Positions 27,179 to 33,254 of a stretch of 42,235 nucleotides of DNA are shown piece after piece (position 1 is the stretch's first letter; each line of letters opens with the position of its first letter). A program made the position numbers and the translations under genes. The stretch lies in the UHGV virus genome UHGV-1993760, one strand, 5' to 3'. The stretch comes from a virus. The notes under the pieces were generated by a model. That model was not told the DNA's origin, made no database searches, and was given only the letters and a program-made list of their open reading frames with translations.

Positions 27179-27431
27179 GTCTTTTTCCCTTTTCTGGTTA
27201 ACGTGACACACCAATAACTCTTGTCTGAAAAGCCAGCAAGCTGAAAGACCGGTATTCGCAACCACCAGCACGTTTAACGTACTGCGCCGTTTTTCGGACA
27301 CAAAAAACCGCCTGGCGGCGGGTTTAAGCTGTGTGGCGTAGTAACCACTCTTAACACGATATAATATTTTTTGCGTACGCGTTATAGTTTTCTTACAATC
27401 TATTTCCAACTCCAATTAAAGGAACAGTGAT

Positions 27432-28589
27432 ATGACCACACTCAAAGAACTCAAAGAAGAGCTTGCTCAGATTCAAGATGAAAACGCGAAAAATAGAAAA
27501 AAAGCTGAAATTGCAGCCTTGGTCACTTCTGCCGACAACGAGATTAGGCTTGCTCAGAGAAATATTGGATACAACGTACGTGAATGGACCGTTGAATTAA
27601 TTGTACAAAAGTATGGCAATAATCTTGAAACTGACAAAAACGAACTTTTTATTCCTGATTATCAACGCGATTACAAATGGGATATCAAAACAGCCTCTCG
27701 ATTCATCGAAAGTATATTATTAGATTTTCCAATCCCGTACCTCTACATCTCCGACGTATTTAATGAAGATCCTGAGTTGGATGGTCGTGTAGAAATTATT
27801 GACGGTTCACAAAGGATTCGCTCAATTTACTACTTTTGGAACAATCAGTTTGAATTGAAAGACTTAAAAGAACTCAAAAGTTTAGAGGGCTTCAAATTTT
27901 CAGATCTTTTGGCTAGCCGCCAGAGGCGATTTTTAAGGGCATCACTAAGATTTATTGAATTGAAAGGTGATGTTGAGGAGCAACATAGAAGAGATTTATT
28001 CGAAAGAATAAATTCAGGTGTTAAGAGACTGGAAGCGATGGAGGTTAGACATGGTTCAGATGCGGCCACTTCAATTTTCTATAGGGATGTTGTGACTCCT
28101 TGCTCAATAAATCCACTTTTCGCTAGTCTAGCTCCATTATCAGACCGGAAGCGTTCGAATGGCGATCATCGTGAGTTAGTTTTGAGATTTTTTGCATACT
28201 TAAATGATTTAGAAAATTATAAGGGTTATGTCGCTCCTTTTATTGACAATTATCTTAATGTTCAGGCCGAAAGGGTCACACAACAAGATGTTGACAAATT
28301 TAAACATGATTTTGAAAGCATGCTTGCTTTTGTAGATGCTCATTTCCCTATGGGGTTTAAAAAGACACCAACAAGCAAAACCACCCCCCGTGCTAGATAC
28401 GAAGCCATAGCAGTGGGAACTGCTCTTGCCTTAAAAGCCAATCCACATCTACAGGCTCCGGTTATTCCTGTAGGAGACTGGCTGTTTGGGGAGGAATTTG
28501 AAACCATAGTTACTGCTGATAGTGCCAACAACACCAGCCAACTCAAAAACAGAATATTTTATGTCAAAGATAAATTATTAGGAATGTAA
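27432..28589 (+). CDS. DUF262 (ParB/Srx-fold, GmrSD N-terminal-like) domain protein
   Basis: 385 aa; ...FIPDYQRDYKW... (aa 73-83) and ...EIIDGSQRIRS... (aa 121-131) match the DUF262 signatures as I recall them (QR.Y.W and DGQQR-like); no recognisable C-terminal HNH/DUF1524 motif; AAAGGAA RBS; AT-rich gene. Confidence 0.65.
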   Translation: MTTLKELKEELAQIQDENAKNRKKAEIAALVTSADNEIRLAQRNIGYNVREWTVELIVQKYGNNLETDKNELFIPDYQRDYKWDIKTASRFIESILLDFPIPYLYISDVFNEDPELDGRVEIIDGSQRIRSIYYFWNNQFELKDLKELKSLEGFKFSDLLASRQRRFLRASLRFIELKGDVEEQHRRDLFERINSGVKRLEAMEVRHGSDAATSIFYRDVVTPCSINPLFASLAPLSDRKRSNGDHRELVLRFFAYLNDLENYKGYVAPFIDNYLNVQAERVTQQDVDKFKHDFESMLAFVDAHFPMGFKKTPTSKTTPRARYEAIAVGTALALKANPHLQAPVIPVGDWLFGEEFETIVTADSANNTSQLKNRIFYVKDKLLGM

Positions 28590-28591
28590 CT

Positions 28592-29281
28592 ATGAGTTTG
28601 ATTGATTTAAGAGATGAATACGAAGAAAGAGCAAGAGATATTATGGAATTGCTTTCTCTTGCGTCATCTTTAGAGGCTCAGACTCAGCAGTTAGATCAGC
28701 AAACGCATAAAGATGAAATAGAATCAAATACCCTTAGGGTTAACATTTTAAAATCATCCGTGCACATGATGCTGTACAATCAGGTTGAAAACACTGCCAG
28801 AGGATGCATTGAGTCAATTTATGACCATTTGCAAGATAATGAAGTAAATTACGCATCACTCAGGGAGAAATTCCAAGTAAATATCTTGCACCGTATCATT
28901 TCAGATAATGAATCGGGAAAATCTCTTTATCAAAAAATTGGTTCCGATATATCTAAAAGGATCATTTCAGCCTCATTAAACATACGTAAAGAATTCAATG
29001 GTAATGTTTGCAAGTCTGTATTGCACAAAATAACACAAGCTTACGGAATAACTGTTGCAAACTCACCAGAGTGTAGAAATGGTGTTGACTTAGATTTACT
29101 TAAAGATATCAGAAATGAGCTGGCACATGGAAGTACCAGCTTTTCTAAAAAAGGTCAAATAGACCCTTTAGAAGAAGTCAAATCGAGGTCAGAAAGAATT
29201 GATCTATATTTGCGTTTATTAATCAACTCAACAGAAAATTATATTACCTCTAACGGGTATTTATCCCCTCAACATGTCTGA
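28592..29281 (+). CDS. HEPN-motif protein (predicted RNase-like effector), translationally coupled to the DUF262 gene
   Basis: 229 aa; ATG 2 nt after the DUF262 stop; mostly helical; C-proximal ...DIRNELAHGS... (nt 29111-29128) fits the HEPN Rx4-6H motif. Confidence 0.45.
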   Translation: MSLIDLRDEYEERARDIMELLSLASSLEAQTQQLDQQTHKDEIESNTLRVNILKSSVHMMLYNQVENTARGCIESIYDHLQDNEVNYASLREKFQVNILHRIISDNESGKSLYQKIGSDISKRIISASLNIRKEFNGNVCKSVLHKITQAYGITVANSPECRNGVDLDLLKDIRNELAHGSTSFSKKGQIDPLEEVKSRSERIDLYLRLLINSTENYITSNGYLSPQHV

Positions 29282-30290
29282 TAAATGTTTCCCCTATTAT
29301 CTGACCAATTATAGGGGGAACAGCATTTCCAATCATTGTCCCCAATTTTTGGAATGAAAAAGGCGTCTCCTTGTCAAGGAATTTATAATCCATTGGAAAG
29401 GATTGCAAAATCGCAGCTTCACGCAAAGTTATGGCGCGATTTTGCTCAGGATGGCCAAATCGTCCATTTCCATATCCATAACACTGGGTAGTTATCGTAG
29501 GGCTAGTATCGTCCCAAACCATCCGTCCATAAACGCTTTTATAGGTAGCACCTGAATTCTTTTTATGACAGTCTGCTCTAATTTCTTCAGGCCAGTCATC
29601 CCACGTACCACCAGGTAAAGAATGCATGATTCGTTTAAGATTGATATCCATCAATTTAGGCGAACGATGCAAGGGATCGCTTTCCAGCTTCTCACCTGCC
29701 CCTACTTTTGGCAACCTACCAATAGCATCCTTAACAGTAACTTTACGGCTAACTTTTTTTTGATCAAGGCTGATCGGCCCCAATTGGGAACCAATTAGAA
29801 TTAATCTACGTCTATTTTGAGGTAAGCCATACTCAGAACATCTTACAACGTCGTACCACAAATGATATCCAAGAGTCTTTAATGCACTAACAAACCCTTC
29901 AAAAACCTTATGGTTTCTAAGTTGAGGAACATTCTCCATCGTCACAAGCTCTGGCATGACATCACTTACAAGCCTTTGAAACTCATATAACAAACGCCAC
30001 TTTGTATCGTCTTTACGGCTATTTGGATTACGATACTTGGAAAACGGTTGGCAAGGAGCACATCCAGCAAGCAATCTAATATTTCCTTCCTTGAACATAG
30101 CAGACACATCGCAGGATTGCAGTTCTGTAACTGACTGATTAATGAACTGCGTTAAAGGATTATTGCTCTCAATAGCAAAACGGCAGGATTCATCAATATC
30201 AATACCATGAGAAACCTCAATCCCGGCTTTTTTTAGCCCAAAAGTTAAGCCCCCCGCACCACAAAAAATGTCTACTGCCTGAATGTTCAC
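29250..30290 (-). CDS. DNA (cytosine-5)-methyltransferase
   Basis: 346 aa; motif I DIFCGAGG, motif IV GCAPCQPFS, ENV, QNRRR, C-terminal GNAVPP; GTG start with GGAG 6 nt upstream; 3' end overlaps the convergent HEPN gene by about 32 bp. Confidence 0.9.
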   Translation of the reverse strand: MNIQAVDIFCGAGGLTFGLKKAGIEVSHGIDIDESCRFAIESNNPLTQFINQSVTELQSCDVSAMFKEGNIRLLAGCAPCQPFSKYRNPNSRKDDTKWRLLYEFQRLVSDVMPELVTMENVPQLRNHKVFEGFVSALKTLGYHLWYDVVRCSEYGLPQNRRRLILIGSQLGPISLDQKKVSRKVTVKDAIGRLPKVGAGEKLESDPLHRSPKLMDINLKRIMHSLPGGTWDDWPEEIRADCHKKNSGATYKSVYGRMVWDDTSPTITTQCYGYGNGRFGHPEQNRAITLREAAILQSFPMDYKFLDKETPFSFQKLGTMIGNAVPPIIGQIIGETFIRHVEGINTR

Positions 30291-30353: not shown

Positions 30354-30722
30354 TTACATAGAACTTAAGTCATTGTAGTAAATGAAAAATGACAAGCAGC
30401 CATCAATAAACCCCATTGCTGTTTGCATCTCTTTCCGTATTGTTCCATCTGAACATTTCCGTTTTTTAGCAATAGCGCGTAATGAGATACCAATAACAAA
30501 GTGAGCAATGATCAACTCATACTCTTCGGGTTTATACTTTCGCAACCGAGCCACACAACCGTCTATCATGATACCTTCGTCATCATCACACTGGAGACGT
30601 GACTTTTTACCGTGTGGTAAAAGCCCCTTGAAGCCTGCTGCTATCGGCTGCCAGTCCACACCACTGTTATCTGCTGCAGCCCAGGCCCCCCAACGATCTA
30701 AAACTTCGTACATATCACGCAT
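30354..30722 (-). CDS. late antiterminator Q-like protein
   Basis: Internal ATG at 30722 with GGAGG upstream; MRDMYEVLDRWGAWAA...AAGFKGL...CDDDEG...CSDG... resembles lambdoid Q (phage 82 / QuuD type) as recalled. Confidence 0.7.
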   Translation of the reverse strand: MRDMYEVLDRWGAWAAADNSGVDWQPIAAGFKGLLPHGKKSRLQCDDDEGIMIDGCVARLRKYKPEEYELIIAHFVIGISLRAIAKKRKCSDGTIRKEMQTAMGFIDGCLSFFIYYNDLSSM

Positions 30723-30979
30723 CAGCGCAGTACCTCCTGCACCAGTTTTTCGAACTTTCCAACTTTGGTTTCCAGCTCTGCCACACAATCCACCAGCTCA
30801 TCCACTGCTTTTTGTGCGCGGTGTTTCGCCTGCATCAGTTCCCTGAGCGCTGGCACCATATCCTTACGAATGGCATCTTTTGTTACGCCTGTCTTTTCCA
30901 GTTGTTCCGCCTGTCGTAACATTTCCTGTGCCTGTTTACGTAATTGTTCAGGCGTAAAAGTCATGGTCTGGTTGTTCAA
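30722..30979 (-). CDS. small hypothetical coiled-coil protein
   Basis: 85 aa ORF between helicase and Q; stop overlaps the Q start (TGATG). Confidence 0.4.
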   Translation of the reverse strand: MNNQTMTFTPEQLRKQAQEMLRQAEQLEKTGVTKDAIRKDMVPALRELMQAKHRAQKAVDELVDCVAELETKVGKFEKLVQEVLR

Positions 30980-32367
30980 AAGAAACGCTCCATCTTACTG
31001 CTGTCGGTTCGCTTATTGCTGTATCTGCGCGGCTGGGGCTGCTGCATTGGGGTGGAAAGAATCTGTGCGCTTTCCTGGTCTACGGGCAGAAAATGTCCGT
31101 TATAAAAACGCCGGTAAATCGTCCCCAGAGAACCGTTACGTTGTTTCGTGATATTGATTTCTGCAATGCCTCTGGCCTGCGTATCCGGGTTGTACACTTC
31201 ATCCCTGTAAAGCATCAGAATGATGTCTGCATCCGCCTCTATTTCTCCGGAATTTTTCAGGTCTGAGTTCATAGGGCGTTTATTGGGCCTGGACTCCACA
31301 CCACGGGAAAGCTGGCTCAGCGCAATCAACGGAAAACCACCGGATTTTGCCAGGCCTTTAAGCCCCTTTGAGATTTCACCCACGGCAAGGTCATGACGCC
31401 CCGTGGTTCGGGTTTTTATCAGCCCGAGATAATCAACCACCACCAGCGCCGTTTCCGGATGTTTAATCAGGTGATGTTTCGTTGTTGCGCATATCTCATC
31501 AATGGTCAGGTTCGCCTGGTCCACCATCCAGATATTGCGCCCGGTCATCCGCCCCACTCCTTGTGAGAAACGTGCCCAGTCTTCGTCTTCAAAGTGAGTG
31601 ACAGATTTCAGGCGTGATACCGGCATTCCTCCAGCCGCAGATACCATGCGTTCACCAATCTGGATGTTCGCCATTTCCATTGTGAACAGAAGAACACCAT
31701 GCCCCTGCTCAGTCACCTTGTCGATGATATCCAGCGCCAGTTCGGTTTTGCCCATCGAAGGACGTGCAGCAATAAATACCAGGTCGCCAGGCTCCATGCC
31801 GCCCGTTTTTGCGTCCAGTTCATCAATACCGGTCATCAACGTCCTGGATTTCTCCAGCCCCTGATTCCGGCATTCAACACGCTCAACCACTTCCGGAAGC
31901 ACATCATCAATATGTACCGGCTGAATAACGCCCTTTTCCGTCGACAATGAGGCCATCATGTTCTGCGCATCCTTCAGAGCATCTTCAGCTGCTTCACAGG
32001 TATGCGCATCACGTAATTTCTGCAGCGCCTCATTCAGTGTTTTTTCTGCATCACGCAATGCGGCATTACGCCGCAACGCCGTAACATAGTGCTCCAGTGA
32101 CGACTTCACCCAGGTTTTGCGCCCGGTATCAGTAATCACCGGGGCAAGTTCCGGCATCTCATTACACAACAGCACAGGGTCAATCACGCCTGAAACACGG
32201 GCCTGTCGGCAGATGCCTGTGTAGATATCCCGATACGCTCGTACAGAAAAAACGTCTGCCGGCAATGTGGCCAGAATATCCATCACTTCATGATCTGCCC
32301 CTCGCAGAAAAAACGCGCCAATGACAGCGCCTTCCAGGTCATCGTTACGCCAGACAGGAGAAGTCAT
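30976..32367 (-). CDS. replicative DNA helicase (DnaB family)
   Basis: ATG at 32367 (ATGA overlap with the loader gene); Walker A ...ARPSMGKTELALD...; DnaB-like C-terminal RecA fold pattern. Confidence 0.85.
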   Translation of the reverse strand: MTSPVWRNDDLEGAVIGAFFLRGADHEVMDILATLPADVFSVRAYRDIYTGICRQARVSGVIDPVLLCNEMPELAPVITDTGRKTWVKSSLEHYVTALRRNAALRDAEKTLNEALQKLRDAHTCEAAEDALKDAQNMMASLSTEKGVIQPVHIDDVLPEVVERVECRNQGLEKSRTLMTGIDELDAKTGGMEPGDLVFIAARPSMGKTELALDIIDKVTEQGHGVLLFTMEMANIQIGERMVSAAGGMPVSRLKSVTHFEDEDWARFSQGVGRMTGRNIWMVDQANLTIDEICATTKHHLIKHPETALVVVDYLGLIKTRTTGRHDLAVGEISKGLKGLAKSGGFPLIALSQLSRGVESRPNKRPMNSDLKNSGEIEADADIILMLYRDEVYNPDTQARGIAEINITKQRNGSLGTIYRRFYNGHFLPVDQESAQILSTPMQQPQPRRYSNKRTDSSKMERFF

Positions 32368-33254
32368 GCTGCCACACCTCCGATATGTGCACGGTAACTT
32401 TCCCAACCAAACACCAGGCAGTTACGCCCACCATCAGTAACGCGATCCACAATCCGTTCACCAATGGACTCCTTAAGTTGGTCAAATGTCAGATTACTAA
32501 TCAAAATTGTCGGTAAAACGCTTTCGTAACGTGCATTGATGATTTCCTGCAGGATGGTTATCTCTGTTGGCGTACCGAACTGCACACCAACCTCATCGAT
32601 GATGAGCAGGTCCAGCGATACAAAATGGTCAATAACTTCATCTTCAGTGCGTTCAGAATTGTGACGCCAGGTATTTTTCACAGCGCGGGTCAGTCGCATG
32701 ACATCCGTAATTTCGACAGTCGCCAGGTGGTGGCGAATAATATTTTTTGCCATTGATACAGCCAGGTGATTTTTCCCGGTACCGCAATTGCCAATCATGA
32801 TCATGCTGGTACCCGCAGCAAGACACTTCTCCCATGAACTGGCATAGCGCCGACAAGCCTCAAGATTTCTCTGTGCGTCAGCATTCACAGCCTGGTAGTT
32901 CTCAAACTCGCAGTCCTGGAAGCGGCGGGCAATACCAGCTCTGTCAAGTAATTCATGAACTTTCAGGATGCGTAACGCCTCCTGTACCTGATCCAGTTCA
33001 TTCGCAATGCAGGTCGGGCAACCAGACACCCGTTTGATGGTTTCCCCACGAACATCTGGCCCTTTCAACACCAGACGTGTGTATTTCCCGTGTTTCTCAC
33101 ACTCAGCAGTTTCCTCGCTTGTCAGCCAGTGTTCACAGCGCCACGGACGCTTCCCGGCACGGGCAAACTGCATCTCCTCCTCCAGTTCCGCCCTGCGGTT
33201 GAGCAATTGCGCTTTATCGTGTTGTGCGTAGTGTTTTTTTAACTGTTCAAACAT
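32364..33254 (-). CDS. helicase loader / AAA+ ATPase (DnaC-IstB-like; lambda P functional analogue)
   Basis: 296 aa; Walker A-like GNCGTGKNHLA, Walker B LLIIDEVG; N-terminal Cys cluster. Confidence 0.65.
   Translation of the reverse strand: MFEQLKKHYAQHDKAQLLNRRAELEEEMQFARAGKRPWRCEHWLTSEETAECEKHGKYTRLVLKGPDVRGETIKRVSGCPTCIANELDQVQEALRILKVHELLDRAGIARRFQDCEFENYQAVNADAQRNLEACRRYASSWEKCLAAGTSMIMIGNCGTGKNHLAVSMAKNIIRHHLATVEITDVMRLTRAVKNTWRHNSERTEDEVIDHFVSLDLLIIDEVGVQFGTPTEITILQEIINARYESVLPTILISNLTFDQLKESIGERIVDRVTDGGRNCLVFGWESYRAHIGGVAA

Follow-up and report, generated by a model that had tools for sequence, protein, structure and literature searches.

A candidate restriction-modification-like defence cassette of DUF262, HEPN and cytosine methyltransferase genes in a lambdoid Escherichia coli prophage

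The virus genome UHGV-1993760, the whole 42,235 nucleotides of which we refer to as the window, is a lambdoid Escherichia coli prophage with most of its genes on the minus strand. At positions 27432-29281 it carries two adjacent plus-strand genes encoding a DUF262 protein and a HEPN protein, and facing them lies a gene for a C5-cytosine DNA methyltransferase (the methylase). A preliminary description made from the letters of the window had read the pair as a two-gene candidate defence module and as an undescribed pairing. Our analysis bore out the domain assignments, the operon and, as probable, a role in defence. The gene count was not borne out, as the C5-methyltransferase gene adjoins the pair and is co-inherited with it, and the pairing proved to have been recognised before.

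The three genes of the cassette

The first gene of the pair (27432-28589, plus strand) encodes a 385-residue DUF262, or ParB-like NTPase, protein, as judged by Pfam PF03235, PADLOC, AlphaFold2 (AF2) and Foldseek. The protein carries ELFIPDYQRDYKW and VEIIDGSQRIRS, the two signatures picked out in the preliminary description, and residues 69-206 match the GmrSD_N (DUF262) family PF03235 with an E-value of 1.1e-25. By the motif definitions of PMC12065111, motif I (QRxxxW) is QRDYKW (Q78-W83; 27663-27680), motif II (DGxQR), the predicted nucleoside triphosphate (NTP)-binding centre, is DGSQR (D124-R128; 27801-27815) and motif III (FxxxN) is FERIN (F190-N194; 27999-28013), all on the plus strand. 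Residues Q78, R79, W83, D124-R128, F190 and N194 showed no variation among 13 homologues, the most distant of them at 53% identity, and QRxxxW and DGxQR were found in all 68 pairs examined. The Pfam search of this protein gave no DUF1524/HNH (PF07510-type) match and no nuclease domain, in keeping with the earlier claim that no such nuclease is fused to it.

Among the PADLOC profiles the best match was NsnA (1.7e-45, 153.9 bits, residues 16-313). The PD-T4-2_A profile (1.3e-26, 91.6 bits) spanned both domains of the protein, and the matches of the SspE, Orf5, GmrSD-like and HEC-05/06 models covered about 25-90 residues of the N-terminal domain only. The AF2 model, with a predicted local distance difference test (pLDDT) value of 82.7, has a ParB-like α/β N-terminal domain followed by an all-helical C-terminal half which, by profile and model, matches the helical domain of NsnA-C/'ParBDB' type. 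When solved structures were searched with Foldseek, the top matches were BrxU (7p9k, probability 0.96), ParB/Noc bound to cytidine triphosphate, and SspE; the probabilities were 0.95-0.96 yet the E-values were weak. DUF262 serves as an NTPase sensor in GmrSD, BrxU and SspE (PMC12065111), and the window protein is predicted to act as a DNA sensor and NTP switch. A PADLOC model named REase_II (PDLC03418, 372 positions) weakly matched the DUF262 domain of some relatives (L013, L017, L033, L039, L081, L099 and L100; E 1e-6 to 6e-12), and the window protein gave no match to it at E ≤ 1. The database behind this model may already include a DUF262 protein as a putative type II restriction enzyme.

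The second gene (28592-29281, plus strand) encodes a 229-residue, all-helical protein of the HEPN_MAE_28990 family, a predicted RNase effector. The junction of the two genes reads TAA-CT-ATG, which is the 2-nt gap given in the preliminary description. Residues 6-221 match PF18737 (HEPN_MAE_28990) with an E-value of 3.8e-16 and 60.4 bits against a cut-off of 26.8, and PF18735 (HEPN_RiboL-PSP) is matched at 6.7e-8 with 33.1 bits against a cut-off of 28.4. The Rx4H motif RNELAH, correctly identified earlier as that of a HEPN protein, comprises R174-H179 (29111-29128, plus strand) and lies inside RNxLAHG. In an alignment of 30 sequences reaching down to 19% identity the invariant residues were R13, Y62, N63, E66, G137, K171 and R174-N175-x-L177-A178-H179-G180, and Rx4H was present in 68 of 68 pairs. 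The AF2 model was all-helical (pLDDT 86.2, predicted TM-score 0.83), and its sole significant structural match was a phage 'MAE-28990/MAE-18760-like HEPN' protein (E 4e-9, TM 0.75-0.82). Clustering at 50% identity divides the HEPN family into about 2,000 clusters; 721 of these score E ≤ 1e-30, and the best 150 are all stand-alone proteins of 209-268 residues.

The Pfam search of both pair proteins found no PD-(D/E)xK, HNH, GIY-YIG or PLD domain. The HEPN protein is the sole candidate nuclease of the pair and, to judge from the HEPN family, most likely cleaves RNA. NCBIfam has no model for either protein, and PHROGs labels both as 'unknown function' (phrog_2598, phrog_3846).

The third gene (29250-30290, minus strand) is convergent with the pair and encodes a 346-residue C5-cytosine DNA methyltransferase, the predicted self-marking enzyme. 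The protein matches PF00145 over its full length (9.5e-54), TIGR00675 (dcm) and the PADLOC model MTase_II (1.6e-87). Its translation contains motifs I (FCGAGG), IV (PCQ; P79-C80-Q81, nucleotides 30048-30056), VI (ENV), VIII (QNRRR) and X (GNAVPP), so that the catalytic set is complete, and from these intact motifs we infer methylase activity. The nearest solved structures, Dnmt1, HaeIII and the CP-933R methylase, were matched via the catalytic core only. Of the features of a type II restriction-modification system, the locus has a methyltransferase with complete motifs adjoining the pair; an endonuclease of known DNase fold was not found by Pfam in either pair protein. The methylase gene starts 63 nt past the Q stop codon, and its 3' end overlaps that of the HEPN gene by 32 nt (29250-29281), an arrangement that the preliminary description had overlooked. 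The same overlap (-32/-35 nt) is kept in enterobacterial relatives, and the corresponding values in other clades range from -65 to +36 nt.

Distribution and prophage setting

Among complete E. coli genomes, 73 (ST131 and O111:H8 included) have loci at 99.8% identity to the 1,850-bp pair, and another 34 carry a variant at about 85% identity. The cassette is thus found in 2% of complete E. coli genomes, and every copy is chromosomal. A megablast search of 5,426 E. coli genomes with the methylase as sole query matched 107 of them at 108 places, and both the genomes and the places are those found with the pair. All three of the E. coli loci examined for context have the pair downstream of Q in a lambdoid prophage. 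Against phage records megablast gave no match and tblastn gave distant relatives only. RefSeq annotates the three genes as 'DUF262 domain-containing protein | MAE_28990/MAE_18760 family HEPN-like nuclease | DNA cytosine methyltransferase'.

Outside E. coli, a DUF262-seeded scan of a genome collection by narrow peptide patterns gave nine loci, from which seven full-length relatives were used (Pseudomonas, Psychromonas, Vibrio, Haemophilus, Actinobacillus, Idiomarina and a Bacteroidia metagenome-assembled genome). The HEPN gene adjoins the DUF262 gene in all seven, and six have a convergent C5-methylase gene; the seventh has alanine racemase downstream and a contig end 58 nt upstream of the DUF262 gene. 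Distant HEPN homologues from Acinetobacter baumannii, Yersinia enterocolitica and a Chloroflexi metagenome-assembled genome all lie in trios of GmrSD_N, HEPN_MAE_28990 and DNA_methylase genes, the Chloroflexi trio being co-directional, and the trio also occurs in Vibrio and Pasteurellaceae.

A HEPN-seeded scan of metagenomes gave 80 loci, 66 of them with at least 300 nt of upstream sequence and 15 too truncated to judge the methylase. In every one of these 66 loci the DUF262 gene lay directly upstream on the same strand, at about -4 to +10 nt from the HEPN gene, which is far more than chance would give. The conservation of the pair as neighbours, which the preliminary description had named as a check of its proposal, was thus seen in both scans. 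A C5-methylase gene was adjacent in 55 of the 65 loci having enough flank: convergent and downstream in 42, co-directional and downstream in 3, co-directional and upstream in 9, and at 821 nt in 1. Gene order tracks the DUF262-HEPN tree. The mobile or defence contexts seen were the Q-lysis cargo region, a P2-like phage hotspot, an integrase-flanked islet in Yersinia and a position beside an AAA_15 ATPase gene in Acinetobacter.

Some loci had further features. The P2-like phage is Peduovirus P2_4B2 (NC_049387; locus L099, 140-3041), where the same trio lies next to replication gene A; its C5-methylase is annotated at 234 residues, the N-terminal two-thirds of the family profile, and may be truncated or frameshifted. 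Two tandem C5-methylase genes follow the pair in Idiomarina (L010, 5171-7681), and one metagenome locus (L087, 6063-7436) encodes a second DUF262 protein of 458 residues downstream.

Among 48 complete trios the methylase remained 48-57% identical to the window copy where the DUF262 protein drops to 39% and the HEPN protein, the fastest-evolving partner of the trio, to 27%. The target-recognition region of the methylase aligned free of gaps and is conserved across trios. Given this identity and the ungapped target-recognition region, there appears to be one co-inherited methylase lineage, whose members probably share one specificity. We conclude that DUF262 and HEPN form an obligate operon pair and that the methylase belongs to the unit, giving a three-gene cassette in which the methylase linkage is strong and not universal. 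That the genes are chance open reading frames was rejected on their overwhelming conservation, and that the methylase is an unrelated neighbour was rejected on the perfectly coupled presence and absence in E. coli.

In the window the pair is placed in the interval between Q and the lysis genes, with the M15 endolysin (23626-24009) and holin (24271-24729) genes to its left and the antiterminator Q (30354-30788, minus strand; PF06530) to its right. A DnaB-type helicase gene (30976-32406) lies beyond Q, and the genes for Nu1 and the large terminase subunit are at 18557-20954. The guanine plus cytosine content is 34-41% across about 27.5-30.5 kb and 50-58% in the structural genes, and the placement of an AT-rich pair in the Q-to-lysis interval thus held as first described. 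A further point missed there is that the pair runs antisense to Q and the late genes; the methylase gene is co-directional with them, as in all E. coli prophages examined.

The region upstream of the DUF262 gene (27360-27431, plus strand), as read from the sequence, has a TATAAT hexamer at 27360-27365 and a Shine-Dalgarno AGGAA at 27420-27424, 7 nt ahead of the DUF262 ATG. A consensus promoter scan did not flag 27360-27365, and a good -35 element is absent. These elements hint at a putative promoter and ribosome-binding site of the pair's own. On the minus strand a GC-rich hairpin followed by a T-run lies at 27321-27308, and TATAAT-like hexamers occur on both strands within the roughly 110 nt preceding the DUF262 start (window 27308-27431). 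It is also possible that 27308-27431 is the phage tR'/late-promoter region, which would put the cassette between Q and the late terminator.

Other cargo surrounds the cassette. Four tandem tRNA genes (Gly-TCC, Thr-TGT, Lys-TTT and Met-CAT; 25795-26104, minus strand) occupy the Q-to-lysis cargo region at the position where Stx phages have tRNAs upstream of stx, and just upstream of this array lies an AT-rich gene for an AraC-family regulator (HTH_AraC/HTH_18, phrog_1450; 26131-26844, minus strand). A small open reading frame adjoining the holin gene (24902-25327, minus strand) gives a partial TerB (tellurite-resistance) match at E 1.2e-7. Between the lysis cassette and the Nu1/terminase genes is a full-length homologue of a K88-type fimbrial subunit (21298-22122, minus strand; PF02432, E 2.7e-58), an unusual prophage cargo. 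Other E. coli prophages with the cassette (L001, 6517-8399; L002, 6356-7408) have to its left a second DNA methyltransferase gene and a DUF6645 gene, the latter intact or pseudogenised, at the place where the window has the AraC regulator and the tRNAs. The cargo region is a mosaic around a constant trio.

Possible modes of action

A role of the pair in phage defence, as first proposed, is plausible by analogy. The closest validated analogue, PD-T4-2 ('DUF262, HEPN'), protects against T4 (PMC9519451). Co-inheritance of the methylase speaks for a restriction-modification-like system and against the modification-dependent, GmrSD-like one that the preliminary description implied. We therefore favour, as a proposition that we hold to be about evenly balanced between true and false, a three-gene restriction-modification-like defence cassette, probably with an addiction function too, that is carried as lambdoid prophage cargo. 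In such a cassette the methylase would methylate a single conserved target in the DNA of both host and prophage. The DUF262 protein, with its ParB/GmrS-like NTP-binding switch and helical DNA-binding domain, would survey DNA for absence of the mark and would control its translationally coupled HEPN partner. By the precedent of its family, HEPN would then cleave RNA and arrest the infected cell or the phage. More tentatively, and with less confidence than we place in the cassette as a whole, we suggest that the restriction arm is no DNase, the missing 5-methylcytosine mark being read by the ParB-like NTP switch and the HEPN RNase being turned on in response. Epigenetic self-marking would then gate an abortive-infection effector. 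Because Q and the late genes are transcribed in the direction of the methylase gene and against that of the pair, late transcription could favour methylase over effector; we speculate that, when the phage itself enters lytic growth, Q-driven late transcription could in this way raise methylation and shut the effector down.

Several observations weigh against this proposal. Ten of the 65 metagenome loci (about 15%) had no adjacent C5-methylase gene despite full flanks. These pairs are flanked by housekeeping genes (e.g., those of aconitase B, carbamoyl-phosphate synthase and tRNA synthetases), come mostly from one clade with sporadic losses elsewhere and all keep QRxxxW, DGxQR and Rx4H. An E. 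coli IncF plasmid (L100) likewise carries a two-gene version. Two trios (L005 and L027) have a different C5-methylase, 31-32% identical, beside a typical DUF262-HEPN pair, a swap hard to square with DUF262 reading a single specific methylated sequence. Hence, a linked methylase of this lineage is the rule and not an absolute requirement. PD-T4-2 is functional in E. coli K-12 without a methylase and without reported toxicity (PMC9519451). The HEPN model had no significant match among solved structures, which leaves the fold without confirmation there, and the HEPN assignment is based on profiles and motif, not on fold.

The first alternative, which we consider a good deal less probable than the favoured cassette, is a two-gene defence system of PD-T4-2 type that acts independently of methylation. 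DUF262 would respond to some sign of the phage, be it DNA ends, replication intermediates or a phage protein, by releasing the HEPN RNase, and the methylase would travel along for another reason, for example to shield the DNA of the mobile element from host restriction or as independent epigenetic cargo. Orphan methylases are common as phage cargo. The existence of genuine two-gene versions with intact motifs, the activity of PD-T4-2 as two genes and the methylase swap in the two exceptional trios all speak for this view. Set against these are the perfect coupling of presence and absence in E. coli, the 85% adjacency that extends across phyla and into non-phage chromosomal settings and the single conserved methylase lineage that co-diverges with the pair. 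Linkage of such degree is hard to explain without a functional link.

It is unlikely, in our estimate, that the cassette is primarily a selfish module of post-segregational killing, in which loss of the cassette would dilute methylation, the longer-lived DUF262-HEPN effector would kill and defence would be a by-product. The convergent, overlapping methylase and effector genes do resemble the addiction modules of type II restriction-modification, the cassette is borne by mobile elements (prophages, a P2-like phage, plasmids and integrase islets), and several toxin-antitoxin systems use a HEPN protein as their toxin (PMC3710099). However, methylase-less pairs are stable among housekeeping genes, and selfishness is compatible with defence rather than exclusive of it. 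Equally improbable is a modification-dependent (type IV-like) sensor in which DUF262 would recognise foreign 5-hydroxymethylcytosine or its glucosylated form as GmrSD does and HEPN would replace DUF1524: in GmrSD and BrxU the DUF262 domain senses modified DNA and acts as an NTPase, BrxU gave the best structural match and PD-T4-2, selected on T4, protects against T-even phages, but a methylase writing 5-methylcytosine beside a sensor of modified cytosine risks self-attack and yet is tightly co-inherited, and the closest profile is NsnA, with GmrSD/SspE matches of only about 30-90 residues.

The methylase linkage gives the favoured cassette a clear, falsifiable prediction. If the methylase gates the DUF262-HEPN effector, restriction-modification logic would be wired to an RNA-targeting, abortive-type response in a widespread cassette. 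The cassette would then offer a tractable handle on DUF262 sensing without an attached DUF1524 nuclease, with a bearing on PD-T4-2, Menshen and Dazbog. The prophage-borne copy may also affect phage-therapy host range in clinical E. coli.

Relation to known systems

The preliminary description had not recognised the pairing as a named system, a view contradicted by two comparative surveys of 2013 (Anantharaman et al. and Makarova et al.), by PD-T4-2 and PD-λ-5 and by the RefSeq annotation. Table 1 of Anantharaman et al. 2013 (Biol Direct 8:15; PMC3710099) catalogues an operon of MAE_28990 HEPN, ParB and methylase genes. The window HEPN protein likewise scores above the PF18737 threshold and has a conserved Rx4H motif with ParB-like and methylase genes adjoining. 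The 2013 entry is one line of a comparative-genomics table, without experiment, system name or mechanism, and it treats the ParB-like partner as a nuclease; present evidence on DUF262 favours an NTPase sensor instead. Makarova et al. 2013 described COG1479/DUF262 fused to HNH, PD-(D/E)xK or HEPN and associated with DNA modification systems.

PD-T4-2 of E. coli ECOR65 (Vassallo et al. 2022, PMC9519451) consists of 1,540 bp with two coding sequences. By HHpred its B protein matches HEPN_RiboL-PSP (97.8%) and HEPN_MAE_28990 (96.9%), and the system, which was selected on T4 and acts against T-even phages, confers protection from T4 in its native host as well as in K-12 (PMC9519451). It shares with the window the adjacent DUF262 (PF03235) and HEPN (RiboL-PSP/MAE_28990 clan) genes; it differs in its HEPN protein of about 165 residues and in having been cloned without a methylase. 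We compared the two by PADLOC profiles. The PD-T4-2_B profile did not match the window HEPN protein (E ≤ 1) or those of seven relatives (E ≤ 0.01 or 0.001), and PD-T4-2_A was always outscored by NsnA, for the window protein and its relatives alike. The IncF plasmid pair and the P2-like trio, which score about 1e-35 on PD-T4-2_A, were rejected as PD-T4-2 orthologues. By these profiles the window clade is related to PD-T4-2 but distinct from it and not orthologous to it.

PD-λ-5, from a prophage of E. coli ECOR7 ('ParB/HEPN, methyltransferase'), has a Dam-like methylase, needs an mrr-deleted host and was interpreted as a compact system combining restriction-modification with abortive infection (RM+Abi; PMC9519451). 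Like the window cassette it is prophage-borne and joins a ParB-like domain, a HEPN-like region and a DNA methyltransferase. In PD-λ-5, however, a ParBc-type ParB is fused to HEPN (about 500 residues) and the methylase is of the MethyltransfD12 type, whereas the window has separate proteins and a C5 methylase. No PD-Lambda-5 model was among the PADLOC matches of either pair protein. Judged on domain make-up and profiles, PD-λ-5 is an analogue of the window cassette and not an orthologue.

NsnA of Menshen (NsnABC), which is composed of ParB-DUF262 and ParBDB, is the protein that the window DUF262 protein resembles most, and relatives match NsnA at 1e-55 to 1e-62 over nearly their full length. 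The NsnB ABC-ATPase and NsnC inPIN effector of Menshen are missing downstream of the window DUF262 gene, where HEPN and a convergent methylase are found instead, and Pfam gave no AAA_15/DUF3696 gene at the window locus. The locus was therefore rejected as a Menshen system. The Menshen analysis remarked that ParB-DUF262 domains by solitary methylases 'may target non-modified genomes'. With GmrSD, BrxU and SspE the window protein has in common the N-terminal DUF262 fold and the three motifs; in place of their fused DUF1524 His-Me nuclease the window has a separate HEPN partner, and the cassette does not stand alone but is linked to a cytosine methylase. As DUF1524 was not found, a GmrSD-type enzyme was also rejected.

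Lacking matches to PD-T4-2_B, NsnB/NsnC, DUF1524 and PD-Lambda-5, the locus would not be called a system by PADLOC v2 models, and defence-system censuses made with those models would miss the cassette. Our literature search yielded no mechanistic study of PD-T4-2 or the window clade. The cassette is not a categorically new system. It is an uncharacterised addition to a kind catalogued in 2013, of which the related PD-T4-2 and PD-λ-5 were proven anti-phage in 2022.

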